Assembly: GCA_016283075.1 (NCBI GenBank)
Contig: JAEEMF010000069.1
Coordinates: 1-61,616 of the forward strand
DNA: 61,616 bases
Direction of reading: 5' to 3'
Source of the DNA: Bacilli bacterium
Lineage (GTDB): Bacteria; Bacillota_I; Bacilli_A; RF39; UBA660
Shown here: positions 7,196-42,170 of the stretch, piece by piece
Layout of the letters: the number at the start of each line of letters is the position of its first letter
How positions within the stretch are numbered: the stretch's first letter is position 1
The notes under the pieces: model-generated
The model's database searches: none
The model's input: only the letters and a program-made list of their open reading frames with translations
What the model was told of the DNA's origin: nothing
Position numbers and translations under genes: made by a program

Positions 7196-7206
7196 GTGGT
7201 GATAAT

Positions 7207-13496: not shown

Positions 13497-13543
13497 TATA
13501 TTATTTCTTATGATATAATTGTTTTAATAGATAAGGTGATGTT

Positions 13544-14125
13544 ATGAAGATAACTTCTGTTGATTTAAAAATAAGTGCAGTTAGACGTAGTCAGTATCCA
13601 ACTGATAACAAACCAGAATTTTTAATGGTAGGTAGATCTAATGTTGGTAAAAGTAGTTTTATTAATACAATTATTAATAGAAAAAATTTTGCTCGTACAT
13701 CTGCAACACCAGGTAAAACTCAAACAATTAACTTTTATTTAGTAAATGATAAGTTTTATTTAGTAGATGCTCCTGGATATGGATATGCTAGTTTAAATAA
13801 AGCTAAAACTAAAAAATTTGGTTTAATGATGGAAGATTATTTAACATCAAGAACTAATCTAAAACAAGTATTTATGTTAATAGATTTTAGACATAAACCA
13901 ACTAGTGATGATATCATGATGTACAACTATTTAAAGTATTATAAATTACCAGTTACTATTATTGCTACTAAAGTAGATAAAATAGGTGTAACAATGCAAC
14001 AAAAACAACGTAAGATGATACTTGATGAATTAGATCTTGTTGTAGGGGATGAATTTGTATTATTCTCTAATGTTACTAAACTAGGTAAAGAAGATATAAC
14101 TAAAAAAATTGAAAGAATACTATAA
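13544..14125 (+). CDS. engB: ribosome-biogenesis GTPase YsxC/EngB
   Basis: G1 GRSNVGKSS, G3 DAPGYG, G4 TKVDK; typical size. Confidence 0.9.
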   Translation: MKITSVDLKISAVRRSQYPTDNKPEFLMVGRSNVGKSSFINTIINRKNFARTSATPGKTQTINFYLVNDKFYLVDAPGYGYASLNKAKTKKFGLMMEDYLTSRTNLKQVFMLIDFRHKPTSDDIMMYNYLKYYKLPVTIIATKVDKIGVTMQQKQRKMILDELDLVVGDEFVLFSNVTKLGKEDITKKIERIL

Positions 14126-14137
14126 AGTATTCTTTTT
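14112..14137 (+). terminator. rho-independent terminator after engB
   Basis: AAAGAATAC / GTATTCTTT stem with a T-run. Confidence 0.65.
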
Positions 14138-14140
14138 CAC

Positions 14141-14169
14141 TTGATTAATTATATTATTTATAATAATAT
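14141..14169 (+). promoter_or_regulatory. promoter of candidate antitoxin sRNA copy 1 (TTGATT-17-TAATAT)
   Basis: -35 at 14141-14146, 17-nt spacer, -10 at 14164-14169. Confidence 0.5.
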
Positions 14170-14175
14170 AAATAT

Positions 14176-14244
14176 AGGAATACCTAATTTTCGCATGTTA
14201 GGTGTTACCGTGTGGTAGACCTAACTAACTAGTTAGGTTTTTTT
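14176..14244 (+). ncRNA. candidate antisense small RNA 1 (~69 nt), putative type I antitoxin
   Basis: Start predicted from its own promoter. 5' hairpin ACCUAA...UUAGGU. Terminator CCTAAC-TAACTA-GTTAGG followed by T7 (14238-14244). Convergent with the peptide gene and complementary to the region downstream of it. Confidence 0.5.
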
Positions 14245-14245
14245 G

Positions 14246-14329
14246 TTATTTCATCATCATTATTATGATTGATAATAGGATGAAGATGATAACTACTAAA
14301 GAAGAGATTAAAAAATCTTTTTTAGTCAT
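14246..14329 (-). CDS. 27-aa hydrophobic peptide MTKKDFLISSLVVIIFILLSIIIMMMK, candidate type I toxin (copy 1)
   Basis: GGAGGTGG lies 4 nt upstream of the ATG. Single TM-like helix with N-terminal KK and C-terminal K. Copy 2 encodes an identical peptide with one synonymous change. Below the ORF-track size cutoff. Confidence 0.55.
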   Translation of the reverse strand: MTKKDFLISSLVVIIFILLSIIIMMMK

Positions 14330-14444
14330 AGTACCACCTCCCTTCGAAGATAACACCTAACATTTAGATACTCCTACATTAATATGATACGAGAAAACTT
14401 TCCCATATCCTTTTTTTATACTTAATTTTTTTATTATAGTTATC

Positions 14445-14472
14445 TTGACATATATAACTAATATGATATTAT
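14445..14472 (+). promoter_or_regulatory. promoter of candidate antitoxin sRNA copy 2 (TTGACA-16-TGaTATTAT)
   Basis: -35 at 14445-14450, extended TG at 14464-14465, -10 at 14467-14472. The predicted start maps to the same repeat position as in copy 1. Confidence 0.55.
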
Positions 14473-14478
14473 GAATAT

Positions 14479-14547
14479 AGGAATACCTAATTTTCGTAGG
14501 TTAGGTGTTACCGTTTGGGAACCCTAACTAACTAGTTAGGTTTTTTT
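14479..14547 (+). ncRNA. candidate antisense small RNA 2
   Basis: Same architecture as copy 1, with terminator T-run at 14541-14547. Confidence 0.5.
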
Positions 14548-14548
14548 G

Positions 14549-14632
14549 TTATTTCATCATCATTATTATGATTGATAATAGGATGAAGATGATAACTACT
14601 AAAGAAGAAATTAAAAAATCTTTTTTAGTCAT
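14549..14632 (-). CDS. 27-aa hydrophobic peptide, candidate type I toxin (copy 2)
   Basis: Same peptide and same GGAGGTGG RBS as copy 1. Confidence 0.55.
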   Translation of the reverse strand: MTKKDFLISSLVVIIFILLSIIIMMMK

Positions 14633-14774
14633 AGTACCACCTCCCTTCGAAGATAACACCTAACATTTAGATACTCCTACATTAATATGATACGGCAAAA
14701 CCTTCTCATATCCTTTTTTATTATAAATATTTTGAAATTATGGTAAAATGAAAGTGTTATTTGTAGGAGGATTT

Positions 14775-15314
14775 ATGAAAATAGTATATTATGTACATGG
14801 TACTACTTATGATAATGCTTCTAAGAAATGTAGTGGTCATAAAGATGTAGAGTTAAATGATTTAGGTAAGGAGCAAGCTATTAATTTAGGAAAGAATACT
14901 CCATATAAATTTGATGTTCTTTTTACTTCAGATTTAAAAAGAGCAATTACTTCTAGTGAGTTAGCATTTCCTTTATATAGTTCCATACCTGATAGTAGAT
15001 TAAGAGAATGTAATTATGGGGATTTTGACGGAGAGGATAAGAGTTTAGTTGTATATGAAGAACACGTGGATACTCCTTTTCCAAACGGAGAATCTTTAAA
15101 AGATGTTGAAAAAAGAGTTAGAGATTTCTTAAAAGAAATATATGATAAATATAAGGATAAAACCATTGGAATAATAGCTCATAGAGCGCCTCAGCTTGCT
15201 ATAGAAGTTATTACTAAACATATTACCTGGGAAGAAGCTAATAAGAATGACTGGAGAAAAACAGGTTCTTGGCAACCAGGATGGGAGTATACTCTAAATA
15301 AAGAAGATTTATAA
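14775..15314 (+). CDS. histidine phosphatase (phosphoglycerate mutase-like) family protein
   Basis: N-terminal YVHGTTYDN (RHG-like motif, with V replacing R) and distal AHRAP His motif. AGGAGG lies 5 nt before ATG 14775, so the ORF-track start at 14748 is probably an extension. Confidence 0.7.
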   Translation: MKIVYYVHGTTYDNASKKCSGHKDVELNDLGKEQAINLGKNTPYKFDVLFTSDLKRAITSSELAFPLYSSIPDSRLRECNYGDFDGEDKSLVVYEEHVDTPFPNGESLKDVEKRVRDFLKEIYDKYKDKTIGIIAHRAPQLAIEVITKHITWEEANKNDWRKTGSWQPGWEYTLNKEDL

Positions 15315-25683: not shown

Positions 25684-26136
25684 ATGATTAAATTACATGA
25701 TGATGAAATAGTCCTTGATTTATCTATAGAGTTTGAAAATTCTTTATTCTTTCATATAAATAGAAAAGAAGATAATAAACATATAGGTAATTGTGGACTT
25801 AGACTTGATAAGAATAAAAATAATTATATATTAGGAAATATTGAGTATGAAGTATTTAATGAGTACCAAGGTAATAACTATGCTTATAAGGCATGTTTAC
25901 TTCTTGGAAAAGTAGCTTCTATGAAAGGAGCAACTTCTTTAATACTAACAGCAAATCCTGATAATATAGCATCTATTAAAACAATAGAAAAATTAGATGT
26001 AAAACATTTAGAAGTAAAAAAAGTACCTAAATCACATTACTTATATAAGAAAGGTGATAGGTACGTAACTATATATGAATGGAATATAGAAGGAGAGAGA
26101 AAAAATGATAGACATAAAATTAATAAGAGAAAATAA
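25684..26136 (+). CDS. GNAT-family N-acetyltransferase
   Basis: YEVFNEYQGNNYAYKA acetyl-CoA-binding-like segment; ~150 aa. ATG 25684 follows AAAGGTG. The ORF-track TTG 25666 lies inside the T-box terminator. Confidence 0.65.
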   Translation: MIKLHDDEIVLDLSIEFENSLFFHINRKEDNKHIGNCGLRLDKNKNNYILGNIEYEVFNEYQGNNYAYKACLLLGKVASMKGATSLILTANPDNIASIKTIEKLDVKHLEVKKVPKSHYLYKKGDRYVTIYEWNIEGERKNDRHKINKRK

Positions 26137-27391
26137 AGACTTAGTAAAAGAAAACATTAAAAAGAAATTTCAAGATGAAAAATTAAAACTAGTTGATGAA
26201 GTATTTGATATGGATGAAAAGGTTAGAAAAGTACAGTTTGATGTAGACAACCTTAAAGCTGAAAAAAATAAAATATCAAAAGAAATTGGTATGTTAATGG
26301 GACAAGGTAAGAAAGATGAAGCTGAAAAAGCTAAAGCTAGAATTGCTGAAATCTCAAATGAAATTACTAGTGGTGAAGAAGAAAAAGTTAGACTAGATGA
26401 AGAAATCAAATCTAGAATGATGGTTATTCCAAATATTATTGATGAATCAGTACCAGTAGGTAAAGATGATTCTGAAAATGTAGAAGTAGAAAAATTTGGA
26501 GAACCAGTAGTACCATCATATGAAATACCATATCATGCAGATATCATTGATAGATTTAATGGTCTTGATAAAGAATCAGCAGGACGTACTTCAGGAGAAG
26601 GATTCTATTATTTACTAGGTGATGTAGCAAGACTTCATGAGGCTATGATAGCATGTGCAAGAGATTACATGATTGATCATGGATTTACTTATGCTATACC
26701 TCCATTTATGATTAGATCAGATGTTGTAACAGGAGTTATGTCATTTGCTGAAATGGAATCAATGATGTATAAAATTGAAGGTGAAGATTTATACTTAATA
26801 GGTACTTCTGAACACTCAATGATAGGTAAATTTAAAGGACAAATGCTTAAAAAAGATACTTTACCTATTAACTTAACTTCTTATTCTCCTTGCTTTAGAA
26901 AAGAAGGAGGGTCACACGGTCTAGAAGAAAGAGGTTTATACCGTGTACATCAATTTGAGAAACAAGAAATGATCGTTATCTGTGAACCAGAAGATTCTAT
27001 GGAATGGTATAACAAGATGTGGAAGCTTACTGTTGATTTATTTAGATCATGGGATGTTCCAGTAAGACAACTTGAATGTTGTTCTGGAGATTTAGCAGAT
27101 CTTAAAGTTAAATCATGTGATATTGAAGCATGGAGTCCAAGACAACAAAAATACTTTGAAGTTGGATCTTGTTCAACTTTAGGAGATGCTCAAGCTAGAA
27201 GACTTGGTATTCGTGTAAAAGGAGAAAATGGTAACTACTATCCACATACATTAAATAATACAGTAGTTGCAACTCCAAGAGGATTAATTGCTTTAATAGA
27301 AAACAATTATCAAGAAGATGGTTCTGTATTAATACCAAAAGTATTACAACCATATATGGGTGGAAAAGAAAAAATTGTTCCAGTTAAATAA
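26105..27391 (+). CDS. serS: serine--tRNA ligase
   Basis: N-terminal MIDIKLIREN coiled-coil arm and class II core; typical 428 aa. Confidence 0.93.
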   Translation: MIDIKLIRENKDLVKENIKKKFQDEKLKLVDEVFDMDEKVRKVQFDVDNLKAEKNKISKEIGMLMGQGKKDEAEKAKARIAEISNEITSGEEEKVRLDEEIKSRMMVIPNIIDESVPVGKDDSENVEVEKFGEPVVPSYEIPYHADIIDRFNGLDKESAGRTSGEGFYYLLGDVARLHEAMIACARDYMIDHGFTYAIPPFMIRSDVVTGVMSFAEMESMMYKIEGEDLYLIGTSEHSMIGKFKGQMLKKDTLPINLTSYSPCFRKEGGSHGLEERGLYRVHQFEKQEMIVICEPEDSMEWYNKMWKLTVDLFRSWDVPVRQLECCSGDLADLKVKSCDIEAWSPRQQKYFEVGSCSTLGDAQARRLGIRVKGENGNYYPHTLNNTVVATPRGLIALIENNYQEDGSVLIPKVLQPYMGGKEKIVPVK

Positions 27392-27413
27392 GAGTACGAA
27401 AGTACTCTTTTTT
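27305..27413 (+). repeat. direct repeat copy 1: serS 3' end plus terminator
   Basis: Repeated at 31550-31658 (offset 4245 bp). About 78 nt are identical, after which the copies are near-identical. Confidence 0.9.
27390..27413 (+). terminator. serS terminator
   Basis: AAGAGTAC / GTACTCTT stem followed by a T-run. Confidence 0.75.
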
Positions 27414-27472
27414 CTTTTATTGACTTGATATAGATATATATATTAAAATATAGATAGAATAGGAAAATATGT

Positions 27473-28435
27473 ATGAATAGATTTAGAATATCAAAACTAT
27501 TTATCTTTATTATGCTAGTACTTATATTTAGTATAAGTGCTGTTTTTGCATATTCCTATTTAGCAGGGGATGTAGGATTTACTCCTAAGGATAGTAACTG
27601 GGATGTAGATAATACAAAAGATGCTTTAGATGATTTAAAAGAGTCTATTGATAGGAGTTGTAATGATCTAATTAATAATGTATGGGTTTATCCTTACACT
27701 GGTGAAGAACAAATATTTTCAGCGCCTTGCAGAGGATATTATTTACTACAAGTGTGGGGCGCACAAGGTGGAAATGCGACTGCTACTTACATAGGCGGAT
27801 ATGGAGCCTATGCTGAAGGAAAGATAAAAGTTAACCAGGTTGAAAATCTATATGTAAATGTTGGCGGTGCTGGTGCTTCGCAATACACAACAGGAAAATA
27901 TCAAGAAGTTGCTGGTGGATATAACGGCGGAGGAACCGCATCTTGTAATAGTGATAAATATTGCAAGTATTATTATAATGGTTCCGGTGGTGGAGCTACT
28001 CATATATCGAAAGAAAGTGGTTTATTAAAAGATACTGTAAATACTACGAATATTATAATAGTTTCTGGTGGAGGAAATGGTGGTCATCATGACTCTGGTA
28101 CTCCTAGTTGGTCTTATGTTGGAGGAAGTGCAATTGGAATTGCTGAATCAGGCACATACTTTGGTTATGGTGGAAGTAATACTTCAATCGCTACTAATGC
28201 TGGTGGAGGTGGTGGTTACTATGGTGGAAACTATGGAACTGCAACTGCTGCAACTATTCCCGGCGGATCTTCTTATTTATCACCAGCTCTAACTGGTGGA
28301 AAAATATACTGCTATAATTGTACAGAGTCGGAGAATGTTTTTAATTCAGCAACTACTTCTCAAAATCCTGCTATTAATGTTGCAAAACAAGGTAATGGAT
28401 ATGCTAAAATAACATATCTTGGTAAATCTTTATAG
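27473..28435 (+). CDS. secreted glycine-rich repeat protein (family member 1)
   Basis: Signal peptide ending VFA|YSY. Conserved N-module YSYLAGDVGFTPKDSNWDVDNTKDALDDL. Motifs VWGAQGG, GGYGAY, YVNVGGAG, GGYNGGG, GGGATHI and GNGYAKITYLG. Confidence 0.8.
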   Translation: MNRFRISKLFIFIMLVLIFSISAVFAYSYLAGDVGFTPKDSNWDVDNTKDALDDLKESIDRSCNDLINNVWVYPYTGEEQIFSAPCRGYYLLQVWGAQGGNATATYIGGYGAYAEGKIKVNQVENLYVNVGGAGASQYTTGKYQEVAGGYNGGGTASCNSDKYCKYYYNGSGGGATHISKESGLLKDTVNTTNIIIVSGGGNGGHHDSGTPSWSYVGGSAIGIAESGTYFGYGGSNTSIATNAGGGGGYYGGNYGTATAATIPGGSSYLSPALTGGKIYCYNCTESENVFNSATTSQNPAINVAKQGNGYAKITYLGKSL

Positions 28436-28464
28436 AAAAAGCATAGATTTTATCTATGCTTTTT
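28436..28464. terminator. bidirectional terminator between convergent genes
   Basis: AAAAAGCATAGA / TCTATGCTTTTT with A-run and T-run flanks. Confidence 0.75.
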
Positions 28465-28466
28465 GT

Positions 28467-31400
28467 TTAAAATAATTCTAGTTGTTCGCTCTTTTGACCA
28501 CAACTTGTTAATATTAATTCTTTTATTGTTTCATATGATTTGGCAAATGAATTAGGAATTTCAAGAAGAATAATATCATTTTCTTTGCATATTTGTGCTT
28601 TTCTAGTATCACATTTTTCTCTATCAATATTACCAAAGTGTTCTCCACCTTGTAATTCGATAGCAATTTGTGGAATTAAATCAATTCCATGAATCTTATA
28701 TAGAACAACATCGAATTCTAATTTTGATTTGCTTAATATAGGATCCTTAGAGAAAAGGGTACTCAACTTAACATTTCTCTTTGCTTGGAATGTATTATTA
28801 ACGCTGCAAAAGTGAGAAATTGTTTTATAAAACATATCTTCATTTTTACTTCCATTCGAATTACCTATTTTAATTGTGTAAGATTCATTACGAGGTACTT
28901 CTATATTCCCATTATTTGCTACATAATTAACTAGATTATATAAATCATCTTTTTTGTCGGTTGATAGTGCCTTTAATGCTTCGACATCTGATGCAATTAT
29001 TAAGTTTTTCTTTGCTCTTGTAACAGCAACGTTTGTTATTTCGGAATTATTCTTTATCCAATCAAATGTTTTTCTACTTGTTTTTGGTGATAAAGATGAA
29101 GAAATAATAATTGTATCTTTTTCTGCTCCTTGTACTTGATGTATAGTACCACAAGTTATATCTTCCATATTGCTTTCTTTTAACATGGATGAAATCAAAC
29201 TTTGTTGATTTTTAAATGGAGTAATTATTGCTACGTCTTTTAAATTGTTTCTTTTCAAATAATCGATAATTGCTTTTGCTTCCTCATAATTCTCATTTTT
29301 GCGTTTAGAATTTTTATTTTCAACGTTTATTAAAGATAAGTTCCCTTCGTTGGAAAGATAATTTAAATTTAGTTTATCATTATAAAATCTTTTATTGGAA
29401 AAGTTTATAATCTTTTTGCCACATCGATAGTGGTATGTTAACATGATATCTTTTGAAATATTATCGTGCTTTTTCATAACATCTAATATAGAATTTGAAA
29501 TATAGTCATAATCATCTGATATACCATATTGTTCTTTTAAATCACTATTTATTTGCTTTTCTAATATAATTACAGGTTTTAATTGATTAGTATCTCCAAC
29601 TAATAATAAATTTTTCGCTCTTGCTATTGGTAGAAGTGCAACAGCACAGTTACATTGGCCTGCCTCATCCATTATTACTAAATCAAATTTATGATTTGCA
29701 GTCCCTAATCTTGCTGCAGACATGTTTGTTGTTATTATAATTGGGAATGCGTTTTCAAGTAGTTTAATATTTGAATCTATTGAGCACCATTTATTAAAAA
29801 TATTAACTCGTTCATCTTCATCTTCAATCTTACAGACATCAATTAGTTGTGAGTATGAAGGGTTTTTTAATTTCTTAATAAATTTTAATGACTCAAAGTA
29901 CATGTATTGCTTAAAGTATCTATCTTCAGATACTGATGTTACTAAGTTTAGGACATCTTGATTTGTTATTGTTGGAAGTTCGTTGTATTCAGTTATTAAT
30001 TTTTGAAGTTCAGAAGCAACATTTTGATAAATGTGACTTACTGGAGCATCTATTGATTCGAGTAATCTCTTTGCACATTCGATTCTATTTTTAATATCAC
30101 GTTTCTTTTCATATGTTTCAAGATGCAAAACTAACTCTTTGTTATTATTGTTAGTATTATCTTTTATTCTTTTAATTTTATCTTCATCTGGATTAAGTTT
30201 TGATTCATAATTATATAGCTCAAGAATGCGTAATGTTGATTTTGCAACTTCTTGTTTATTACCTAATCTTAAATATGGAAACGGAATATCGTTATCATCT
30301 CGATATGAAAACGACAATTTCTCAAGAATACCATTTATTGGTTTGTTATTTGCCGAGCAGATTAAAGTTGTTTTAAGGTAAAAAAAAGCACTTAATATAA
30401 CGTTGAGAATAGTTTGAGTTTTGCCAGTTCCTGGAGGACCTTGAACATATGTGATAGGATACTTCATTGAATTATATATAACTCTCATTTGATCAATGTT
30501 TACTTTGTCATCATATATTACAATTGATGGTTCTTTGCGTCTTGAACCAAATCTTCTTGTGTTTCCAAAGAATGCTTTTAGTGGATATTCTAATTCTCCA
30601 TTATTAATTTGTTCTTCTATTGTATTGAAAGTTGGCTCTAGATTGGCAGCTGTTATTCTTTGCATAATCATAAACTCTGGCATTTGATTTATTATTTCTG
30701 AACTTCTTAAATTACTTCTAATAAGTTCGGTGTACATTTCTAAGCAATCATCTAAATGATTTACAATATTATCGCAAAATTCTTGCGGGTCCATATTTAT
30801 ATATGCTGATAGTGAATGTCTCTTATTTCTAATTAAGAAACTTTGATTAATTCTTGGGGTCTTATCAATTGATAGCTCTTTTGATGTAGGGTTGAACCTA
30901 ACATTGTAATATAGAACAATATATTTTTTGTCATTTTCATCAATCGACAGAAATGATAGTATTAAATAATTAATTTCAGAATCAACTCTTTTTATATCAA
31001 ATGTTTTAATATATGAAATAACTTTTCTTTCTTGTTCCTCATTAAGTTTGATCTTTTTGTTATTTAGTAATACTTCTTTATCTACCCCATCAACTAGAAA
31101 ACCATCTATTTGATATGGGTCATTATCTAATTCGTTACATTTTAGATAATATTTTAAAATGTTATTATTAAATGTTTCGTATTGAAGCCATTTCGCTTCT
31201 TCACGATTTTTTTCAAGTTTGGTGATTAAACTTTGTGGAGTATCATATGTAGTAAAATCCAAAATCTTTGCACGTACTATGTTATCGAATTTAATTCGAA
31301 CACCTAATGTATCGAGTGATTTTTGGTCGTTAAAAATATCTACGGATAGGATTCTACTTTTTAAATCAATATCTTTAATCGCAATCCAATAATATGTCAT

Positions 31401-31484
31401 TTCGTTATTACTATTTTGGTATGCTATATCGATCCATTTTCCGTATTTAATTGCTTCAGATATTATTAATTCTATATTTTTCAT
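28467..31484 (-). CDS. WYL-like domain / Upf1-DNA2-like SF1 helicase / DUF2726-Vsr-like nuclease fusion protein (candidate defence gene, Hhe-like architecture)
   Basis: Helicase motifs GPPGTGKTQT, VIMDEAGQ, LVGDTNQLKP, YHYRCG, TIHQVQGAEKD and VAVTRAKKNL. N-terminus IDIAYQN...YYWIAIKD...RIKFDNIVRAKIL is WYL-like. C-terminus EFDVVLY...IAIELQGGEH...ILLEIP has a PD-(D/E)xK-like pattern. AAGGTGG RBS. Confidence 0.8.
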   Translation of the reverse strand: MKNIELIISEAIKYGKWIDIAYQNSNNEMTYYWIAIKDIDLKSRILSVDIFNDQKSLDTLGVRIKFDNIVRAKILDFTTYDTPQSLITKLEKNREEAKWLQYETFNNNILKYYLKCNELDNDPYQIDGFLVDGVDKEVLLNNKKIKLNEEQERKVISYIKTFDIKRVDSEINYLILSFLSIDENDKKYIVLYYNVRFNPTSKELSIDKTPRINQSFLIRNKRHSLSAYINMDPQEFCDNIVNHLDDCLEMYTELIRSNLRSSEIINQMPEFMIMQRITAANLEPTFNTIEEQINNGELEYPLKAFFGNTRRFGSRRKEPSIVIYDDKVNIDQMRVIYNSMKYPITYVQGPPGTGKTQTILNVILSAFFYLKTTLICSANNKPINGILEKLSFSYRDDNDIPFPYLRLGNKQEVAKSTLRILELYNYESKLNPDEDKIKRIKDNTNNNNKELVLHLETYEKKRDIKNRIECAKRLLESIDAPVSHIYQNVASELQKLITEYNELPTITNQDVLNLVTSVSEDRYFKQYMYFESLKFIKKLKNPSYSQLIDVCKIEDEDERVNIFNKWCSIDSNIKLLENAFPIIITTNMSAARLGTANHKFDLVIMDEAGQCNCAVALLPIARAKNLLLVGDTNQLKPVIILEKQINSDLKEQYGISDDYDYISNSILDVMKKHDNISKDIMLTYHYRCGKKIINFSNKRFYNDKLNLNYLSNEGNLSLINVENKNSKRKNENYEEAKAIIDYLKRNNLKDVAIITPFKNQQSLISSMLKESNMEDITCGTIHQVQGAEKDTIIISSSLSPKTSRKTFDWIKNNSEITNVAVTRAKKNLIIASDVEALKALSTDKKDDLYNLVNYVANNGNIEVPRNESYTIKIGNSNGSKNEDMFYKTISHFCSVNNTFQAKRNVKLSTLFSKDPILSKSKLEFDVVLYKIHGIDLIPQIAIELQGGEHFGNIDREKCDTRKAQICKENDIILLEIPNSFAKSYETIKELILTSCGQKSEQLELF

Positions 31485-31504
31485 ATGATTCCACCTTCAA
31501 AAAA

Positions 31505-31513
31505 ATAATATCA
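31505..31513 (-). promoter_or_regulatory. extended -10 element (TGATATTAT) upstream of the helicase-nuclease gene
   Basis: Read on the minus strand, ~20 nt upstream of the start codon. Confidence 0.35.
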
Positions 31514-31549
31514 TATTTTATTGTTTTTTTCCATTTTAATATAATTTGA

Positions 31550-31636
31550 AATTATCAAGAAGATGGTTCTGTATTAATACCAAAAGTATTACAACCATAT
31601 ATGGGTGGAAAAGAAAAAATTGTTCCAGTAAAGTAA
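31550..31636 (+). pseudogene. orphan duplicate of the last 28 codons of serS
   Basis: Encodes NYQEDGSVLIPKVLQPYMGGKEKIVPVK*, identical to the SerRS C-terminus. No upstream coding continuity. Confidence 0.9.
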
Positions 31637-31658
31637 GAGTACGTGAGTACTCTTTTTT
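31635..31658 (+). terminator. duplicate of the serS terminator
   Basis: AAGAGTAC / GTACTCTT stem followed by a T-run. Confidence 0.7.
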
Positions 31659-31659
31659 A

Positions 31660-31688
31660 TTGACTAAATATATATATATATATATAAT
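31660..31688 (+). promoter_or_regulatory. promoter TTGACT-17-TATAAT with (TA)9 filling the spacer
   Basis: -35 at 31660-31665 and -10 at 31683-31688. The spacer is exactly 17 nt. Confidence 0.6.
31669..31686. repeat. (TA)9 dinucleotide microsatellite
   Basis: Counted directly: TA x9. Confidence 0.95.
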
Positions 31689-31720
31689 TAAAGTATAAAG
31701 TAAGATAATAGGGTGTTTAT

Positions 31721-32305
31721 ATGAAAAATATTTTTAAAAGAAAAATTCCTTATTTTATACTTGGAGTACTTGTAGCAATAACAAGTACTGTTTTTGCATA
31801 TAGTTATTTAGCTCCCGATGTTGGCTTTACTCCTACTGATACAACTTGGAGTGTTAGTAATGTTAAAAGTGCTTTAGATTCACTTAGAAATGAGCACATA
31901 TTCGAACATTTATCAAACAATTTTCTAAATGGAAGTATTTATGGAATATATAATAGTAGTAGTCTTGCCTTATATAGTGGTGCTTCTAGAGATGGAGATT
32001 ATATATCCCTTAATTCAAATAATGCGCTTTATTCTATACCAAATTTAAGCATTCCAGAGGGGTGTTATTTTATTATTGTAAACGGCCAAAATCTGACAAA
32101 TGCTTTTTCTCCTGATGTAGTAAATGCTTCTACATACAAAGCATATGCTCCCAAAATAGTTGAAAAGGGTAATAATTATGCATATTACTACATAAATGTT
32201 GGAGAAACCATGAGTACTGGAGAATTTAGAATTTGGAATAAATCTTCTAATGTTATAAAAATAAAAACTACAATGATTTTCAACGTTGAGACATGTCCTT
32301 ATTAA
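31721..32305 (+). CDS. secreted protein with the family N-module but a non-glycine-rich C-terminal domain
   Basis: Signal peptide ending VFA|YSY, then YSYLAPDVGFTPTDTTWSVSNVKSALDSL. The C-terminus is unrelated to the Gly-rich body. Confidence 0.75.
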   Translation: MKNIFKRKIPYFILGVLVAITSTVFAYSYLAPDVGFTPTDTTWSVSNVKSALDSLRNEHIFEHLSNNFLNGSIYGIYNSSSLALYSGASRDGDYISLNSNNALYSIPNLSIPEGCYFIIVNGQNLTNAFSPDVVNASTYKAYAPKIVEKGNNYAYYYINVGETMSTGEFRIWNKSSNVIKIKTTMIFNVETCPY

Positions 32306-32333
32306 AAGATATCTATTTGGATATCTTTTATTA
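32304..32333 (+). terminator. rho-independent terminator
   Basis: AAAAGATATC / GATATCTTTT stem. Confidence 0.7.
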
Positions 32334-32467
32334 TATTTTAAACTAGCGGAATTTCTCTAGTTTAAAAATTAGTTGACTACAATTTGTCACCAACTGATTA
32401 CGACTTGACTTAATTGCTACTTATATATATAATTTATAGTGATTTTTAAAAGAAAGAGGTGAGAAAT

Positions 32468-33574
32468 ATGAAGAAAAAAGTTGTTATAGGTATGAGTGGT
32501 GGTGTTGATTCATCAGTTGCGGCTATTGAATTACAAAAACAAGGTTATGAAGTACTAGGATTATTTATGCGTAACTGGGATTCACTTGCTGATGGTGAAA
32601 TGAATGGACCTACTACTGATCAAGGTATTTGTCCTCAAGAAGTAGATTATAATGATGCTTTAAAAGTATGTAATAAACTTGGTATTGAGCTTCATAGAAA
32701 AGACTTTGTTAAAGAATACTGGGATTATGTATTTACTTATTTCTTAGATGAACTTAAAAAGGGTAGAACTCCTAATCCAGATATAATGTGTAATAAATAT
32801 ATTAAGTTTGATATGTTTGCCAAAGAAGCTCTAAAATTAGGCGCAGATTATATAGCAACTGGTCATTATGCTCGTATTAAAGATGGTAAATTATTAAGAG
32901 CAGTAGATGACAATAAAGATCAAACATATTTCTTATCACAAGTAAGTAAAGAGCAGCTAAAAAATGTCCTATTCCCAATAGGAGATATGGTTAAACCAGA
33001 TGTAAGAAAAATCGCGGAAGAATATGAACTTGTTACTGCTGAGAAAAAAGATTCTACAGGTATCTGTTTTATAGGAGAAAGAAACTTTACTAACTTCTTA
33101 AAAAACTATTTACCAAATCAACCTGGTAAAATAGTAAATATTGATACTAATGAAGTAATTGGTGAGCATATCGGTTTAATGAACTATACAATAGGTCAAA
33201 GAAGAGGACTTGATATTGGTGGTACAAAAGAAAGAATGTTTGTAGTAGGTAAAAACCTAAAAGATAATATTCTTTATATATGTATAGGAGAAGATAATGA
33301 TTACTTAATGTCTACATCTTGTATTGTAGATTCTATTAACTATTTAGGTGATGAAAAGATAACTAAATGTACTGCTAAATTTAGATATCGTCAGCCAGAC
33401 ATTGATGTAGAAATTAAATGGCTTAGTGATGATGAAATAGAAGTAATCTATCCGCAAGGAGTAAAAGCTGTTACTCCAGGACAAGCATGCGTTTTATATA
33501 ACGGAGAAGAATGCTTAGGTGGAGGAATTATCAAAGAAGTACGTAAAAACGGAGAAAAACTTTGGTATTTATAA
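32468..33574 (+). CDS. mnmA: tRNA-specific 2-thiouridylase MnmA
   Basis: PP-loop GMSGGVDSS and conserved Cys motifs. ATG 32468 follows AAGAGGTG. Confidence 0.92.
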
Positions 33575-33600
33575 CTAGTATTTAATATACTAGTTTTTTT
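33573..33600 (+). terminator. rho-independent terminator
   Basis: AACTAGTA / TACTAGTT stem followed by T7. Confidence 0.7.
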
Positions 33601-33643
33601 ATATTGTTTTTGATATAATACATATAGTAGGGAGGAATAAAAA

Positions 33644-34225
33644 ATGGGAAAGAGTAAAACTAATAAAAAAATGAAGAAATTTTTTAAAGAATTAGTGATT
33701 GAATGTAAGTCACTTAAATTTACTAAACATCATTTTTATTACACTTTATTATCTTTAATTATATTAATACTATCTATATTCTTATTTAATAATTATAATA
33801 ATTGTCAAATATATGAAGTAAGTATAAATACACCAGGATTTGTAGTAGATAATGGACTTGTAGTTCTATCTAAAGGTAATAATATTATTAGAATGGATTC
33901 TATTAAATATAACGGGGATATAGAAACAATTAGTTATATTAAAAGTGAATTATATGTATTAGTAGACGGAGAAGAAATGTTATTAAACGCTTTTACAACT
34001 TCATCTGAAGATGGATTCTCATTAGAAGAATATACAAAGAATATGTCTTTTGATATTAATGAAACAAAATATAATGAAGATGTAATTACTCGTAAAGTTA
34101 GAAAAGCTTTACCAAACAATTTATATTTAAGAATATCAACATTTACTACTGATGGAAATGAACAGTTATTTAAACTTAAATTAAATGCTGAAAAATTATA
34201 TTCAAATAGTAAGTTATTTTATTAA
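33644..34225 (+). CDS. membrane-anchored hypothetical protein
   Basis: Basic N-terminus, then one TM helix (YYTLLSLIILILSIFLF). GGGAGG RBS. Confidence 0.65.
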   Translation: MGKSKTNKKMKKFFKELVIECKSLKFTKHHFYYTLLSLIILILSIFLFNNYNNCQIYEVSINTPGFVVDNGLVVLSKGNNIIRMDSIKYNGDIETISYIKSELYVLVDGEEMLLNAFTTSSEDGFSLEEYTKNMSFDINETKYNEDVITRKVRKALPNNLYLRISTFTTDGNEQLFKLKLNAEKLYSNSKLFY

Positions 34226-34287
34226 AAAATAAGGGTAAACTATATAAAGTTTACTCTTTTTATGTTATACTCTTTTTAGGTGATACT

Positions 34288-35235
34288 ATGGAAGAACTAA
34301 TAAGTGTAATTGTTCCAGTATTAGATGTTGAATCTTACTTAACTTCAACTATTGATTCACTAGAGAAACAAACATATTCTAATATTGAAATTATCTTAAT
34401 ATGTAGAGAATCTAATAAGAACTGTATGAAACTATGTAATTATTATGCTGAAAAGGATAAACGTCTTAAAGTAGTACCTGTTAAAATGACTTCTACTAAG
34501 AATTTTAAGAATTTAGGATTATCTAAAGCAAAAGGTAAATATATTACTTTTCTTGATGGAGGAGATACTGTTTCTAAATCTTATGTAGAATATATGTATA
34601 ACCTTTTAAAAGATGAAAAAGCTGATATAGTTTGTACACGAAGATATATTAAAGGTTCTAAACAGAAAAAATCTATAGATTATGATACTTATACTAATAA
34701 AAATATTATGTATAAATATTTAACTGGTCATTTCCGTAGTCACTTTTATGCTAAACTTTATAAAAAAGAATTATTTGATGAAATAGAATATCCTGAAGTA
34801 TCATATTATGATGACTTTATGGTAGGGTATAAAATATTTGATAAAGCTAAAAAACTTGTTAATAGTCATAATGAATTATATTCATATAATGAAGAAAAAA
34901 GAGATAGATTCTTTGGTATACAAGATTATGATCAAATGAAAAAGATAGGGGCATGTTTTGATATGCTTACCTATGTAGAAGAAAAGTATCCTGATTATAT
35001 AGATGATTGTAAAGCTAAAATATGTTTAGAAGCTTTAGACTTATTTAAATATGTAAGAGATAAAGAATATCGTAAACAATTATTTAGTTATATTTCTTTA
35101 TATAGAAGATATGCTTTTAGAAGTGAAAACATAACTTTTAAAGAAAAATTAATATGTGTAAGATCTATTTTAGGATATAACTTTTTAAAACTAAGTTTAG
35201 GAATGGAAAAATTTATAAAGAAGCCTATTAAATAG
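34288..35235 (+). CDS. glycosyltransferase family 2
   Basis: ISVIVPVLDVESYL N-terminus and FLDGGD (DxD-like) motif. Confidence 0.8.
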   Translation: MEELISVIVPVLDVESYLTSTIDSLEKQTYSNIEIILICRESNKNCMKLCNYYAEKDKRLKVVPVKMTSTKNFKNLGLSKAKGKYITFLDGGDTVSKSYVEYMYNLLKDEKADIVCTRRYIKGSKQKKSIDYDTYTNKNIMYKYLTGHFRSHFYAKLYKKELFDEIEYPEVSYYDDFMVGYKIFDKAKKLVNSHNELYSYNEEKRDRFFGIQDYDQMKKIGACFDMLTYVEEKYPDYIDDCKAKICLEALDLFKYVRDKEYRKQLFSYISLYRRYAFRSENITFKEKLICVRSILGYNFLKLSLGMEKFIKKPIK

Positions 35236-35297
35236 GCTTCTTATATTGTTTATAGAACAAATGTATGATAAAATTATAAAAGATAGATGGTGATACA

Positions 35298-37382
35298 GTG
35301 GATTTAAGTATGCTTAATGAAAACCAATTAGAAGCAGTAAAAACAACAGAAGGACCTCTTTTAGTTTTAGCAGGAGCAGGTTCTGGTAAAACTAAAGTAC
35401 TTACTACTAGAGTAGCGTACCTTATAGAAGAACTAGGAATAGATCCTAAATCTATTCTAGCTATTACATTTACAAATAAAGCTGCTAAAGAAATGAAGGA
35501 TAGAGTTATAAAAATGCTAGGAGATGTAGGATATAAAATACAAATATCTACATTTCACTCATTTGGACTTACTATTATAAAAGAGAATTATAAGTTACTT
35601 GGATATGAAAAGAACTTTACTATACTTGATAGTGAAGACTCTTTAACACTTATTAAAAAGATACTTAAAGATATGGATAAAGATCCTAAAATCTTTAATC
35701 CTAAAATGATAAGAAATAAAATAAGTGGATATAAAAATGACTTAATGGAGCCAGATGACTTAGTTAAGTTTTCAACAAGTGAATTAGATGATTTAATAAT
35801 AAGTGTTTATCGTAAATATAAAGATAAATTAGCTATTAATAATTCAGTAGATTTCGATGATTTATTAATACTACCAATTATTTTATTTAAACAAAATCCA
35901 AATGTTTTAAAATATTATCAAGATACTTTTAAATATGTACTTATTGATGAGTATCAGGATACTAATGAAGCTCAGTATACTTTAACTAAAATGATTAGTG
36001 CTAAGTATAAAAATATATGTGTAGTAGGAGATAATGATCAGTCTATATATTCTTTTAGAGGTTCTAATTATAAAAATATATTAAACTTTGAAAAAGATTA
36101 TAAGAATGCTAAAGTAATAATGCTTGAAAGAAATTATAGATCTACTAAACAAATACTTGATGTAGCAAACTGTATTATTAAAAATAATACACTTAGAAAA
36201 GATAAAAACTTATGGACTAAAGAAGAAAGTGGTTCTAAAGTAAGATATCATAGAGCATCTAACGAAAAAGATGAAGCATCTTTTGTAACAAGTGAAATTA
36301 AAACTCTTATGAAAGATAATCCATTATCTGAAATAGCTGTACTATATAGAACTAATGCTCAGTCTAGAAATATGGAAGAAGCACTTCTTAAAGAAAACAT
36401 TCCTTATAAAGTAATAGGAAGTATGTATTTCTATAAAAGAAAAGAAATTAAAGATTTACTTTCATATTTAAATGTAATTTATAATTCAAGTGATGATATA
36501 AGTTTACTTAGAGTTATTAATGTTCCTAAAAGAGGTATAGGAGATAAAACAATAGAAAATCTTACTATTAAAGCAAATAAAAATCATACAAGTTTATATG
36601 ATGCAATTGATAGTGGAAAAGAATTAGAATTTAAAAATATTATAGAAGATATTAAATCTAAACAAGATAATATGTCTTTAACAGAACTCGTTGATTATAT
36701 ACTTACAGTTACTGGAATAAGATTTGAATTAGAATCAGATGAATCTATAGATTCGGAAATAAGACTTGAAAACTTAGAAGAATTTAAATCTATTACTAAA
36801 GCCTTTGAAGAAGAAAAAGGAGTAGTATCTCTAGAAGAATTTTTAATGGAAATATCTCTAGTATCAGATGTAGAAGAACATAAAAATAATAATGATGTAG
36901 TAACCTTAATGACTATTCATAGCGCAAAAGGACTAGAATTTGATAATGTATTTATTATAGGACTAGAAGAAGGATTATTCCCACATATGAATAGTATGGA
37001 TGATTTTGATGGTATAGAAGAAGAAAGAAGACTATGTTATGTAGCAGTAACTAGAGCAAGAAAAAGATTATATTTAGTTAATGCTAAAGAAAGAATGATA
37101 TATGGTCAAACATCTTCTAATGTAGTAAGTAGATTTATAAAAGAAATAGATAAAGACTTACTAGATATTGATGAAGTTGAAACACTTTATAAACCTAAAA
37201 AAGTTATTCACAGCAATATTGATACAAATGCTGAATATAATCCAGGTGATAAGGTAATACATGATGTATTTGGAAAAGGAATGATTATTACAGTAGATAA
37301 ATCGGTAGTAACAATAGCATTCCCTGGGCCATATGGAATTAAGACTTTAATGAAAGGTCATAGTAGTATTAAGAAAATATAA
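35298..37382 (+). CDS. pcrA: ATP-dependent DNA helicase PcrA/UvrD
   Basis: AGAGSGKT, DEYQDTN, TIHSAKGLEF and VAVTRARKRL motifs. Confidence 0.92.
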   Translation: MDLSMLNENQLEAVKTTEGPLLVLAGAGSGKTKVLTTRVAYLIEELGIDPKSILAITFTNKAAKEMKDRVIKMLGDVGYKIQISTFHSFGLTIIKENYKLLGYEKNFTILDSEDSLTLIKKILKDMDKDPKIFNPKMIRNKISGYKNDLMEPDDLVKFSTSELDDLIISVYRKYKDKLAINNSVDFDDLLILPIILFKQNPNVLKYYQDTFKYVLIDEYQDTNEAQYTLTKMISAKYKNICVVGDNDQSIYSFRGSNYKNILNFEKDYKNAKVIMLERNYRSTKQILDVANCIIKNNTLRKDKNLWTKEESGSKVRYHRASNEKDEASFVTSEIKTLMKDNPLSEIAVLYRTNAQSRNMEEALLKENIPYKVIGSMYFYKRKEIKDLLSYLNVIYNSSDDISLLRVINVPKRGIGDKTIENLTIKANKNHTSLYDAIDSGKELEFKNIIEDIKSKQDNMSLTELVDYILTVTGIRFELESDESIDSEIRLENLEEFKSITKAFEEEKGVVSLEEFLMEISLVSDVEEHKNNNDVVTLMTIHSAKGLEFDNVFIIGLEEGLFPHMNSMDDFDGIEEERRLCYVAVTRARKRLYLVNAKERMIYGQTSSNVVSRFIKEIDKDLLDIDEVETLYKPKKVIHSNIDTNAEYNPGDKVIHDVFGKGMIITVDKSVVTIAFPGPYGIKTLMKGHSSIKKI

Positions 37383-38852: not shown

Positions 38853-39908
38853 ATGAAGAAAATATTAAAGTCTAGATTAGTATGTTATTTTCTTGGAATC
38901 CTTACAATGATAGGTGTAGGAAGTGTTTTTGCATACTCTTATATAGCAGGTGAAATAGGTTTTACACCCACTTCTGGAGACTGGGATGTTGAAAATGTTC
39001 AGGAAGCTCTTGATAACTTCCGTGATATAGCAGGAACATGTATTTTTACATGCCCTTATGCACCTGGTTCTACAGTATATGAATCAGGTACATCTGGAAT
39101 AAGTGTTAAATTTGTACCACTATGTAATGGTACTTATCAGTTTGAAGTATGGGGAGCTTCTGGTGGATATGGTTATTCATCTACTTATAGAGGTGGATAC
39201 GGAGCATATGCTAGAGGTGTTGCAACACTTCAAGCAAATGATCCAATATATATTACTATAGGTGGAGTAGGAAAAAATGGTACTTCTAAAACTGCAGATT
39301 ATGCAGGAGGATATAATGGTGGTGGTAATTCTTATCACTGGGGTAATAATAATACCTATAGTGCATCAGGTGGAGGTGGAGGATATTACTTTACTACAAC
39401 TGAAAATGCAGTTGGTGGTTCTGGAGGAGGAATCTCCGGAGTAAATGGTAATGTAAACCCATCCGCTCAGTATAGACGAGGACTTGGTGGAACACAAACA
39501 GCTGCCGGTAGCTTCGATGGTACTGGTCGTAGAGAAGCTAATGCTGGTGGTTTTGGTTATGGTGGAGACTCGAGTGCAACTGTTTCTGGATCTGGTGGAG
39601 GATCTGGTGGAGGAGCAGGATTCTTTGGTGGTGGAGGTTCTTCCGTAGCCGGAGCCGGAGGAGGTTCTAGTTATATTGCAAGTTCACTTCTTATTCCTAA
39701 CAATAGTAATCAAATAAGAAATGTAATGTACTGCTATCAATGTACTGAAAGTAGTAATTTATATACCTATACTGTATCAACTTATGGTACTACAACTCAT
39801 GAAGGCGAAAGAAATTCAGAATGTTCAAGTGGATATAGTACATCACCACTTAGTGGATGTGCTAAATCAGGTAGTGGATACGCCATTATAAAATATATAG
39901 GAGAATAG
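38853..39908 (+). CDS. secreted glycine-rich repeat protein (family member 2)
   Basis: VFA|YSY signal and N-module. Motifs VWGASGG, GGYGAY, ITIGGVG, GGYNGGG, MYCYQCTES, VSTYGTTTHE and GSGYAIIKYIG. ATG 38853 lies 7 nt after AGGAG. Confidence 0.8.
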   Translation: MKKILKSRLVCYFLGILTMIGVGSVFAYSYIAGEIGFTPTSGDWDVENVQEALDNFRDIAGTCIFTCPYAPGSTVYESGTSGISVKFVPLCNGTYQFEVWGASGGYGYSSTYRGGYGAYARGVATLQANDPIYITIGGVGKNGTSKTADYAGGYNGGGNSYHWGNNNTYSASGGGGGYYFTTTENAVGGSGGGISGVNGNVNPSAQYRRGLGGTQTAAGSFDGTGRREANAGGFGYGGDSSATVSGSGGGSGGGAGFFGGGGSSVAGAGGGSSYIASSLLIPNNSNQIRNVMYCYQCTESSNLYTYTVSTYGTTTHEGERNSECSSGYSTSPLSGCAKSGSGYAIIKYIGE

Positions 39909-39919
39909 AAAGGATACGT

Positions 39920-41070
39920 ATGAAAACACACTTAAAGAATTTATTTTTTATAGTGATTGGATTAATCTTGGGGATATCTCTAAGTGTTTTGCATACTCTT
40001 ATTTAGCAGAACAAATAGGATTTACTCCTTCGGCAGAAGACTGGGATGTAGATAATGTTCAAGATGCTTTAGATAGTTTTAGAGATATAGCAAGCCATTG
40101 TCCTTTTGGTTGTGAATATGTTGTAGGAGAACCTGCAATTGAATTACAATATAGAGGTGTAGAGGATGTCGTTAATATAAAATGTCCTGGAAAATTCAAA
40201 ATAGAAGTATGGGGAGCTTCTGGGAATATTGTAGACGCTACTTATGCACATTCCGGTTATGGAGGTTATTCCGTCGGAATTATGTCTTTTAATGAAGGAG
40301 ATACTTTATATATAAATGTTGGTGGAACCGGCGCTTCTTCAACATATGGTTCTGCATCAGGTGGATATAATGGTGGAGGAAGCGGAAAGGATTATAGAGA
40401 TGGAAGAGGAACCGGAGGTGGCGGAGGTGCTACACATATTGCTAAAGTAACTGGTGAACTTAGATATCTTGAATCATTCAAGGGAGAATTAAATAATGCA
40501 TCTGGAACTTATATATCTGACAAGATAATAATTGTCGCTGGGGGTGGTGGCGGAGTTGGTAATTTTACAGGACTTCATACAGCAAATCTTGTTGCGGGTT
40601 CCGGTGGTGGAAGTGTTGGTGTTACAGGAGTTAGTCCAGGAACTGGTAAAACTTACTATGGAACAGGTGGAACACAATTAGCTGCAGGAACTGCTGAAAG
40701 AACAGATTCAGTATACCAGGGGACAGACGGGAGTTTTGGATTTGGTGGAGATTGCACTGGAGCTGCCGAAGGAAACTGTTCTGGAGGAGGCGGAGGATTT
40801 TTTGGAGGAGGCTCCAATTCAAATTACTCTGGAGCAGCCGGTGGTGGCTCTGGTTATATAGGAAACATTTCTTTAAGTGAAAAAGCGATGTACTGTTATA
40901 ATTGCACTGAAAGTGATACTGCTGATTCATATACTGTTTCAACTTATGGAACAACAACTCATGAAAATGAAAGAAATCCGTTATGTGTAAATGGCTATTC
41001 GTTTGATCCTATTAGTAAATGCGCTAAAGCAGGAAACGGATATGTTAGAATAACTTATTTAGGAAGTTAA
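39920..41070 (+). pseudogene. glycine-rich family member 3, frameshifted in a T-run at 39987-39990
   Basis: The N-terminal 23 codons are nearly identical in DNA to the 41085 gene, which has TTTTT where this copy has TTTT. The frame then stops at 40004-40006. The +1-shifted frame continues open (FAYSYLAEQIGFTP...) into ORF 40282-41070. Confidence 0.75.
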
Positions 41071-41084
41071 TAGAAAGGGTAAGT

Positions 41085-42170
41085 ATGAAAAAACACTTAA
41101 AGAATATATCTTTTATAGTGATTGGATTAATCTTGGGGATATCTCTAAGTGTTTTTGCATATTCAGTATTTGCTGAAGAGGTTGGATATACTCCTGTTGA
41201 TACTGAGTGGAATGTAGAAAATTCTAAAGAAGCAATAGATGATTTACATGGAACATGTGATTATTGCAAGAATCGTTTCTTAGGAATTACGTGGGATTTT
41301 ACTTTTGAAGGAAAAGAAAGACAATTTAATGTTCCTTTAAAAGGAATATATAAATTAGAAGCATGGGGAGCACAAGGTGGAAGCTATGATACTACTATTT
41401 ATGGTGGATATGGTGGATATTCAGTTGGTGAAATACTTCTAAATGAAAATGATACTCTTTATATAAATGTTGGTGGGAAAGGTTCGACTACATATCATAA
41501 TGAAACAATTCTAAACGGTGGTTATAATGGTGGTGGGTCTGCTAAATCAATCGGTGATGCTGATGTATATGTTGGTTCAGGTGGCGGAGCTACACACATA
41601 GCCAAGGCATCAGGTTTACTATCAACTTTAGTGACAAATCAAAGCGATATTTTGATAGTTGCAGGTGGTGGCGGAGGAGCTAACAAGTTTGTCTCGGATT
41701 ATTATGGTCATGGTGGAAATGGAGGAGGAGTCTCTGGTGAAAAGCCTACTTTAACTAATGTATCTGGCTATACTTATCCAATTGGCACAGCTAATGGAGG
41801 AACCCAAAATGCTGGTGGTAGTTACATGACTACTTGTTCTGGAAGTGCCTGTTATAATACACAAGCCGGTAGTTTTGGCCAAGGTGGCAATGCCATTAAT
41901 GTAAGAACATCAGGTGGAGGCGGAGGCTACTATGGAGGCTCTAGTGGAGCAAGATCTGGTGGAGCAGGTGGTTCTGGATATATAGCAGCCCTTAATCAAA
42001 AATCAATTGATATTGATGAAAAACATATGACTTGTTATAAATGTACAACTTCTAATAATGCAATAGATCGAACAAGAACAACTGATAATGTATCAGAAGA
42101 TGCTGAGAGCGATTATGCAAAAATGGGGAATGGTTACGCTAAGATAACTTTAGTAATGGTAAGCCAGTAA
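41085..42170 (+). CDS. secreted glycine-rich repeat protein (family member 4)
   Basis: Signal peptide ending VFA|YSV and an N-module. Motifs AWGAQGG, GGYGGY, YINVGGKG, GGYNGGG, GGGATHI and GNGYAKITL. Confidence 0.8.
   Translation: MKKHLKNISFIVIGLILGISLSVFAYSVFAEEVGYTPVDTEWNVENSKEAIDDLHGTCDYCKNRFLGITWDFTFEGKERQFNVPLKGIYKLEAWGAQGGSYDTTIYGGYGGYSVGEILLNENDTLYINVGGKGSTTYHNETILNGGYNGGGSAKSIGDADVYVGSGGGATHIAKASGLLSTLVTNQSDILIVAGGGGGANKFVSDYYGHGGNGGGVSGEKPTLTNVSGYTYPIGTANGGTQNAGGSYMTTCSGSACYNTQAGSFGQGGNAINVRTSGGGGGYYGGSSGARSGGAGGSGYIAALNQKSIDIDEKHMTCYKCTTSNNAIDRTRTTDNVSEDAESDYAKMGNGYAKITLVMVSQ

Follow-up and report, generated by a model that had tools for sequence, protein, structure and literature searches.

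The window analyzed here, the whole 61,616-nt contig JAEEMF010000069.1 of a Bacilli bacterium (GenBank assembly GCA_016283075.1; GTDB RF39, UBA660), contains a direct repeat of 112 nt, one two-copy family in the repeat search (27305-27416 and 31550-31661, 96% identical, offset 4245) in which each copy consists of codons 401-428 of serS, the gene for seryl-tRNA synthetase, together with the stop codon and the intrinsic terminator. We refer to this 112-nt stretch as the module, to a copy detached from serS as an orphan, and to the DNA between the copies as the islet. An earlier note on this DNA, made from its letters alone, had read the duplication as the footprint of an insertion into the 3' end of serS, with an att-like duplication in which the incoming DNA supplied a replacement gene end; that reading is supported below by an empty site in a close relative and by the distribution of the variants of the proximal copy. 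The locus contains the following features.

26105-27391, plus strand: serS, intact, the proposed target gene (ORF; Pfam PF00587, tRNA-synt_2b, and PF02403, Seryl_tRNA_N)
27305-27416, plus strand: proximal module copy, attL-like, the true serS end, with variants unique to the window lineage (repeat search, alignment)
27390-27409, plus strand: serS intrinsic terminator, variant 1, loop GAAA (terminator-like hairpin)
27420-27449, plus strand: promoter-like site TTGACT-18-TAAAAT for GRD1 (sequence)
27473-28435, plus strand: GRD1, first cargo gene, 320 aa, glycine-rich, predicted to be secreted or membrane-anchored, with a signal/N-module followed by ALK_LTK_GRD (Pfam PF12810, E=3.8e-27; N-module paralogues)
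28436-28464, unstranded: bidirectional terminator hairpin, A5-GCATAGAT-TTT-ATCTATGC-T5, used in common by GRD1 and HEL, which converge on it (sequence)
28467-31484, minus strand: HEL, second cargo gene, 1005 aa, of defense-island type (Pfam, PADLOC, PDB, homologue neighborhoods)
31485-31549, minus strand: HEL promoter region, the element-side arm that touches the orphan copy, with a -10 element TATGATATTAT conserved upstream of HEL homologues
31550-31661, plus strand: distal module copy, an orphan, attR-like and non-coding, of the sequence type of the native serS end in three related contigs described below (L164, L165 and L182)
31635-31654, plus strand: terminator of the orphan copy, variant 2, loop GTGA (terminator-like hairpin)
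31660-31688, plus strand: promoter-like site TTGACT-17-TATAAT for the gene at 31721 (sequence)
31721-32305, plus strand: N194, 194 aa, with an N-module and a C-terminal part that is not GRD, assigned to no Pfam family and found directly after serS in L165 (ORF, Pfam)
32306-32377, unstranded: right edge of the strain-variable region; homology to L164 resumes just upstream of the mnmA promoter (32405-32433)

The two copies are identical over their first 78 nt and differ beyond that point by four substitutions and an indel in total: GTT AAA in the proximal copy corresponds to GTA AAG in the distal one, a synonymous change, the terminator loop reads CGAAAG in the former and CGTGAG in the latter, and the T-run differs by 5 nt. 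The serS product is 99% identical in amino acid sequence to the same-species proteins P0002 and P0003, and on the distal side an in-frame TGA at 31547-31549 abuts the orphan copy immediately upstream. GRD1 and HEL are the only two ORFs between the copies, and a TTGACT promoter follows each copy, in agreement on all of these points with what the earlier note had described. The shared bidirectional terminator, together with a HEL promoter that occupies the 65 nt up to the orphan copy, makes the unit compact. No integrase or transposase was found in the islet by ORF, Pfam or PADLOC analysis, and an iterated hidden Markov model (HMM) search found no tyrosine recombinase in the window, in keeping with the previous description of the segment as a remnant, as mobilized in trans or as driven by recombination. 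Rfam and tRNA scans of the window were empty, so the insertion target is not an RNA gene, and the repeat search gave no significant terminal inverted repeats at the islet ends. Upstream, the start of serS overlaps the end of a GNAT gene by 32 nt (26105-26136), and the Rfam scan returned no T-box leader or other element ahead of serS. Segment composition, which had been proposed as a check, says little: GC content is uninformative because GRD1 and its paralogues are GC-richer through their glycine codons, the flip in GC skew follows the orientation of HEL, and codon usage is only mildly atypical.

Informative contigs from the same species or near it were recovered through serS homologues, namely L164 (an 82-kb scaffold), L165 (a 1917-nt metagenome contig, ERZ27256878) and L182. 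In L165 an intact serS runs into terminator variant 2, after which come the promoter of N194 and the first 31 codons of that gene, with one mismatch in 266 nt (99.6% identity) to window positions 31550-31815. As far as the contig extends, L165 represents the empty site that had been predicted in the order serS, terminator, N194 and mnmA; the prediction holds up to the start of N194, the L165 contig ending before it could reach mnmA. L164 is collinear with the window from addB to past galU at about 96% identity (flanks 95.6-96.6%) and carries between serS and mnmA one gene for a 380-aa GRD protein (GRD380), only 41% identical to GRD1, with no HEL, orphan or N194. The serS-mnmA locus is a multi-allelic cassette site, of which L164 carries a third allele. 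Over the serS body (1738 nt) the window, L164 and L165 are equidistant, at 52-61 differences. The variants of the proximal copy (GTT AAA, CGAAAG and T6CT4) are unique to the window and absent from L164, L165 and L182, which fits their import together with the GRD1-HEL islet, and the variants of the distal copy are common to these three contigs.

The module also behaves as a unit outside the window. L182 belongs to a more distant lineage, with a serS protein that is 90% identical and, upstream, a NUDIX gene, and compared with L165 it shows about 12 differences per 100 nt in the serS body, one in the last 87 nt and none in the terminator. The similarity ends at TTTTTTATT, the exchange stopping at the terminator T-run, after which unrelated DNA with a different gene follows, and the edges of the exchanged stretch match the repeat edges of the window, within about 20 nt on the left. 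This is not a matter of intrinsic conservation, as in the next species, L002 and L003, the module differs from that of the window by 16/87 and 12/25. Among the proteins, P0005, the serS product encoded on L182, combines a 90% identical body with 28/28 identical tail residues, as compared with 21-27/28 in all other relatives whose serS bodies are 84-88% identical, and the serS protein P0004 is identical to that of the window over residues 1-402 and has a foreign tail of 26 residues from 403. By these sequence comparisons, the 112-nt module can be shown to have been exchanged between lineages as a discrete unit.

An exchange bounded in this manner also bears on the alternative, put forward in the earlier note, that the cassette entered by homologous recombination with the serS 3' end and the N-module as arms. 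Both genes that follow the copies do start with the same N-module, as had been stated, but the similarity between them (59% in amino acids over 49 aa, about 70% in nucleotides) is no higher than that to three other paralogues in the window, 7-10 kb away, and this paralogue-level similarity, together with the end of the L182 exchange at the T-run, makes the N-module at most a hypothetical recombination arm. Judged by these identities, the common N-module is a feature of the family, and the recent duplication does not extend into it.

Just left of the repeat edge, at 27292-27298, the window lineage has five clustered substitutions (GCACTTCTTG to GCTTTAATAG). At the same edge L164, L165 and L182 have a 7-nt inverted repeat, CTTCTTG-N11-CAAGAAG, that straddles it and that the window does not have; this could be the core site of a recombinase or a coincidence.

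Of 80 species-level serS loci that were each compared with themselves, four (L074, L076, L041 and L045) have orphan serS 3' ends downstream of the gene. The single orphan of L074 bounds an 883-nt unit with one 168-aa gene; that of L041 measures 27 nt and lies 8 kb downstream, and that of L045 measures 25 nt. The L076 locus (11144-15238) is an array in the order serS, truncated AAA_14 ATPase, orphan, Fic, orphan, SLFN/AlbA_2 regulator, orphan; its three orphans have a left-flank motif in common, and beyond the array stand the same genes that come after serS in L034. Cargo across the orphan-bearing loci includes Fic, SLFN/AlbA_2, an AAA_14-DUF4143 ATPase, an ABC transporter and an EF-Tu-domain membrane protein, and no recombinase gene is encoded in the units of these four loci. 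Across 2.56 Mb of related loci, repeated duplication of a gene end on its downstream side was seen for serS alone. Gene order downstream of serS is not conserved in a serS-anchored scan of species genomes, and in an mnmA-anchored scan of metagenome contigs no other species has serS beside mnmA, so that scan offered no empty site.

Some details of these loci stand by themselves. The second and third orphans of L076 are composites of two different serS ends. The AAA_14/DUF4143 gene directly after serS is 91-93% identical between L041 (9865-11109) and L076 (11452-11975), the L076 copy being internally deleted; we considered this as a case of cassette transfer and set it aside, as the intergenic DNA is 78% identical, like serS, and the case is not clean evidence. 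A 17-nt match in L034 lies inside an ankyrin gene and was rejected as a chance match.

We consider it probable that the window holds a small accessory islet, or cassette, that lacks a recombinase gene and was inserted into serS, an essential gene, at its 3' end. The unit, of 4245 bp, would comprise its own copy of the module, the promoter and GRD1, the bidirectional terminator common to both cargo genes and, read from the other strand, HEL and its promoter. Recombination of the unit's module with the resident serS end would leave serS intact and now ending in the imported module variant, and the original serS end would be displaced 4.2 kb downstream, where it would persist as a non-coding orphan still heading N194. 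The unit may have arrived as a circular or repeat-flanked intermediate. As for the crossover, a site-specific recombinase supplied in trans, which would make the islet a remnant resembling a cis-mobilizable element (CIME), has in our estimate nearly an even chance; RecA-mediated homologous recombination with the module as homology, either of Campbell type or through the flanks, is a serious possibility that falls somewhat short of even, Campbell-type recombination being feasible because the module is near-identical between diverged lineages; and other means are unlikely. At present the islet would probably be lost by recombination between its two repeats, and it probably spreads within the species by ordinary homologous recombination of its flanks. 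A broader reading, which we hold to be doubtful, is that the last 28 codons of serS with the terminator serve as a portable recombination handle heading each cassette, an integron-like stacking without an adjacent integrase in which the insertion, stacking and swapping of cassettes (GRD1-HEL, N194, RhuM-like, Fic, Schlafen-like, AAA_14) downstream of an essential gene would take place in different species of RF39-like gut Bacilli, through RecA acting on the handle or through a trans-acting recombinase that recognizes it.

Several observations weigh against insertion of an islet at serS. The empty-site contig L165 is a short metagenome contig that ends 31 codons into N194, and two states alone cannot give the direction of change, so that insertion in the window, and not deletion in L165, is what we infer. 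The left edges of the orphans vary by species (about -137, -87, -56 and -35 nt from the stop), by which a single fixed crossover site is not demonstrated. P0004 is known as a protein only, from a 38-kb contig that is possibly chimeric. No integrase-bearing relative of the islet was found, viral, plasmid and phage collections contained no attP-like serS fragments, and no integrative and conjugative element (ICE) or integrative and mobilizable element (IME) was found at the serS 3' end in the 80 species-level loci. One locus, L066 (11365-18012), does have a phage-type tyrosine integrase directly behind serS and, next in line, amidoligase, GGACT and Tad4-like (anti-Thoeris) genes, with no serS-derived repeat and only a 15-mer repeat outside serS. 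Lastly, L165 is closer to the window in the N194 region (1/266) than in the serS body (3%), and this difference, with P only about 0.03, would also fit an import of the distal part.

Among candidates that were rejected, the 15-nt repeat of L066 is not significant alone, and the serS candidates in viral contigs proved to be chance matches (eight 17-mer hits) or full-length host serS (five peptide hits). Searches with HEL and GRD1 against viral contigs, and with the whole unit against plasmids and phages, returned nothing relevant. In two IMG/VR contigs, L178 and L179, a scaffold gene of the Chlamydia-phage type (Microviridae) follows serS at a distance of about 2 kb, and a gene for a tyrosine recombinase lies divergently upstream of serS.

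The import of the distal part deserves the most attention among the alternatives. In that scenario the ancestor had the order serS-GRD1-HEL-mnmA and received an L165-like fragment that happened to start at serS codon 401, so that N194 is the newcomer and the orphan a hitch-hiking piece of donor DNA; the entry of the fragment would have combined homologous recombination toward mnmA with an illegitimate joint beside the HEL promoter. Such homology-facilitated illegitimate recombination (HFIR) has been documented in transformable bacteria (PMC3240628). The scenario needs no recombinase, it draws support from the near-identity of the orphan and N194 start to L165 beside serS bodies that are 3% apart, and L164 provides a natural state in which a GRD-type gene stands right after serS. 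However, the ends of the orphan coincide with those of the module exchanged in L182 and with the tail switch in P0004, which is not expected of a random fragment end. The left-flank motif common to the three L076 orphans, the repeated involvement of serS, and of no other gene end, in several species, and the position of the lineage-unique variants on the proximal and not the distal copy also argue against such an import, and we regard it as unlikely.

Less probable still, and in our judgment very unlikely, is an old tandem duplication of a segment running from the serS 3' end through the terminator and promoter to an N-module gene, in which the copies diverged, HEL arrived later and gene conversion kept the orphan similar to the serS end. 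Tandem duplication triggered by transformation is known (PMC3784515), and the presence of a TTGACT promoter and an N-module gene after both copies would be accounted for. Contig L001 could be taken in the same sense: it matches window positions 27303-37268 at 99.94% over 9966 nt, stops 2 nt left of the repeat edge, and carries copy-2 variants in its terminal copy 1, through either conversion between the copies or bubble merging at the contig end. Yet identity falls from 96% to the level of paralogues directly after the terminator, homology past the 112 nt ends after the N-module so that the units are not homologous over their full length, same-species strains L164 and L165 have one-cassette states, and L182 has the same module before an unrelated gene. 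An assembly artefact, of which the earlier note had warned and which the metagenomic source, the break of L001 at the repeat edge and the mixed variants of its terminal copy might suggest in the form of a collapsed or mis-joined repeat, is scarcely credible, since the copies differ by four substitutions and an indel and both lie in unique sequence of the 61.6-kb contig, and since the arrangement is repeated in L001 (GCA_016295205.1) and L083 (GCA_016295295.1), each of which independently joins HEL, orphan and N194, one of them also joining GRD1 to copy 1.

With insertion into the serS 3' end as the preferred reading, the closest described category is that of the CIMEs, as known from the Streptococcus ICE/IME families at fda, rpsI, rpmG, rplL and tRNA-Lys, and the islet belongs to it in part. 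CIMEs are cis-mobilizable elements with a classical range of 1.2-13 kb that arise through the decay of an ICE or IME at the same att site and whose att sites are recombined by the cognate integrase that an accreted element provides in cis, and tandem accretion is part of ICE/IME biology in Firmicutes (PMC5704250, PMC7563491). The islet is likewise a few kb long and within that range, consists of cargo genes, is flanked by attL/attR-like direct repeats that consist of the target gene's 3' end, with serS left intact, and, with GRD1 and HEL alone between the repeats, has no genes for an integrase, relaxase, coupling protein, VirB4 or other transfer functions; multi-unit arrays such as that in L076 are a further likeness. 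Unlike in the described families, neither a parent ICE or IME nor a cognate serS integrase was found in this clade, and descent from a conjugative element would be hypothetical; the repeat, at 112 nt with the whole terminator included, is long, its edges vary between species, and the host belongs to an uncultured lineage of low-GC gut Bacilli whose nearest named relative is Candidatus Coprovivens. Campbell-type insertion-duplication has the same topology, with homology duplicated around the insert, mixed donor and recipient variants and reversibility through the repeats, but it is a laboratory and plasmid phenomenon, and natural circles carrying a 112-nt serS end are hypothetical here.

Other systems share less. 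Integrase-free hotspots of defense and accessory genes resemble the locus in that serS-mnmA content varies within the species, with defense-type cargo and no mobility genes; such hotspots are normally without a duplicated piece of the flanking gene, whereas in this case a copy of the serS end stands at the head of each cassette. Integron arrays also stack small recombinase-less cassettes in a promoter-proximal manner, each bounded by a recurring recombination sequence, but no IntI or attI stands beside this array (the upstream genes are addB, addA, GNAT and serS), the recurring sequence is coding DNA of an essential gene with its terminator and has no attC palindrome, and the cassettes have their own promoters. 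A prophage, phage satellite or phage-inducible chromosomal island (PICI) does not fit a segment in which Pfam finds no integrase, replication or packaging genes and which has no match in phage or viral collections, nor does a transposon or insertion sequence (IS) fit one with no transposase, no significant inverted repeats and a 112-nt duplication that far exceeds a target-site duplication. HEL and the helicases of the Mokosh system (MkoA/MkoB, MkoC) are both Upf1-like members of superfamily 1 (SF1), but a Mokosh helicase goes with a nuclease of the PLD family, either MkoB or a part fused into MkoC, and HEL has neither a phospholipase D (PLD) nuclease domain (Pfam) nor an MkoB partner, and has instead a DUF2726 tail and a novel N-terminal region.

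The locus offers a clean small example of how uncultured gut Bacilli with reduced genomes may gain and stack accessory genes beside an essential gene without a recombinase of their own. If a dedicated mechanism is at work, the serS 3' end would count as a new target for integration and could help to locate cassettes in metagenomes; if homologous recombination alone is responsible, a piece of an essential gene with its terminator can act as a self-restoring homology arm.

Regarding the cargo, the N-terminal region of HEL is beta-rich and of unknown family; it is followed by an SF1B helicase resembling Upf1, Sen1 and DNA2, and the protein ends in a nuclease-like DUF2726 domain. Pfam recognizes the SF1 helicase domains AAA_11/AAA_12 and, with a weak match, the DUF2726 tail; the PADLOC hits to MkoC (2.8e-55) and MkoA (2.4e-46) are confined to the helicase region, and the closest solved structures in the PDB are DNA2, Sen1, IGHMBP2 and Upf1. 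An AlphaFold model, with a predicted local distance difference test (pLDDT) score of 67.7, has N-terminal beta-rich domains of no known family and a tail of the order alpha-beta-beta-beta-alpha-beta. A WYL domain at the N-terminus was considered and had no Pfam support. Among the long genes HEL is the most atypical in codon usage, with a third-position GC content (GC3) of 0.18 and a relative synonymous codon usage (RSCU) correlation of r=0.875 versus 0.94-0.99. Homologues with 67-76% identity form more than 100 clusters and are located in defense islands (for example in L166 and L167), next to RloB/AAA_21, Schlafen-type helicases, MrcB_N/NOV_C and Eco57I-type systems and not next to serS; no direct repeats flank them in other genomes, so HEL itself is not a repeat-bounded unit. 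HEL is a candidate single-gene anti-phage defense and represents a large uncharacterized family of helicase-DUF2726 proteins of about 1000 aa in defense islands. GRD1 and N194 would be variable proteins that are secreted or exposed at the surface. Only one other gene in the 61 kb lies, like HEL, on the minus strand; this gene (57428-59260, minus strand) encodes a prepilin-type N-terminal methylation motif fused to a right-handed beta-helix.

A 1-nt frameshift splits a GRD paralogue at 39920-41070, in a tract that reads T4 there and T5 in the neighboring gene at 41085; this could reflect a pseudogene, phase variation at the tract or an error of sequencing. An 87-nt stretch with ribosome-binding site (RBS) and signal peptide at 39904-39990 recurs at 41069-41155 (94%). 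Elsewhere in the window, a 273-nt tandem duplication (14159-14431 and 14462-14733, 93-95% identical) lies in the intergenic region between a GTPase gene and a histidine-phosphatase gene, with no tRNA or Rfam match. The region 928-8100 is a tandem array of about eight paralogous genes of about 260 aa that recur every 805-830 nt or so and belong to no Pfam family, of which the youngest pair (5173-5472 and 5983-6282) is 95% identical.

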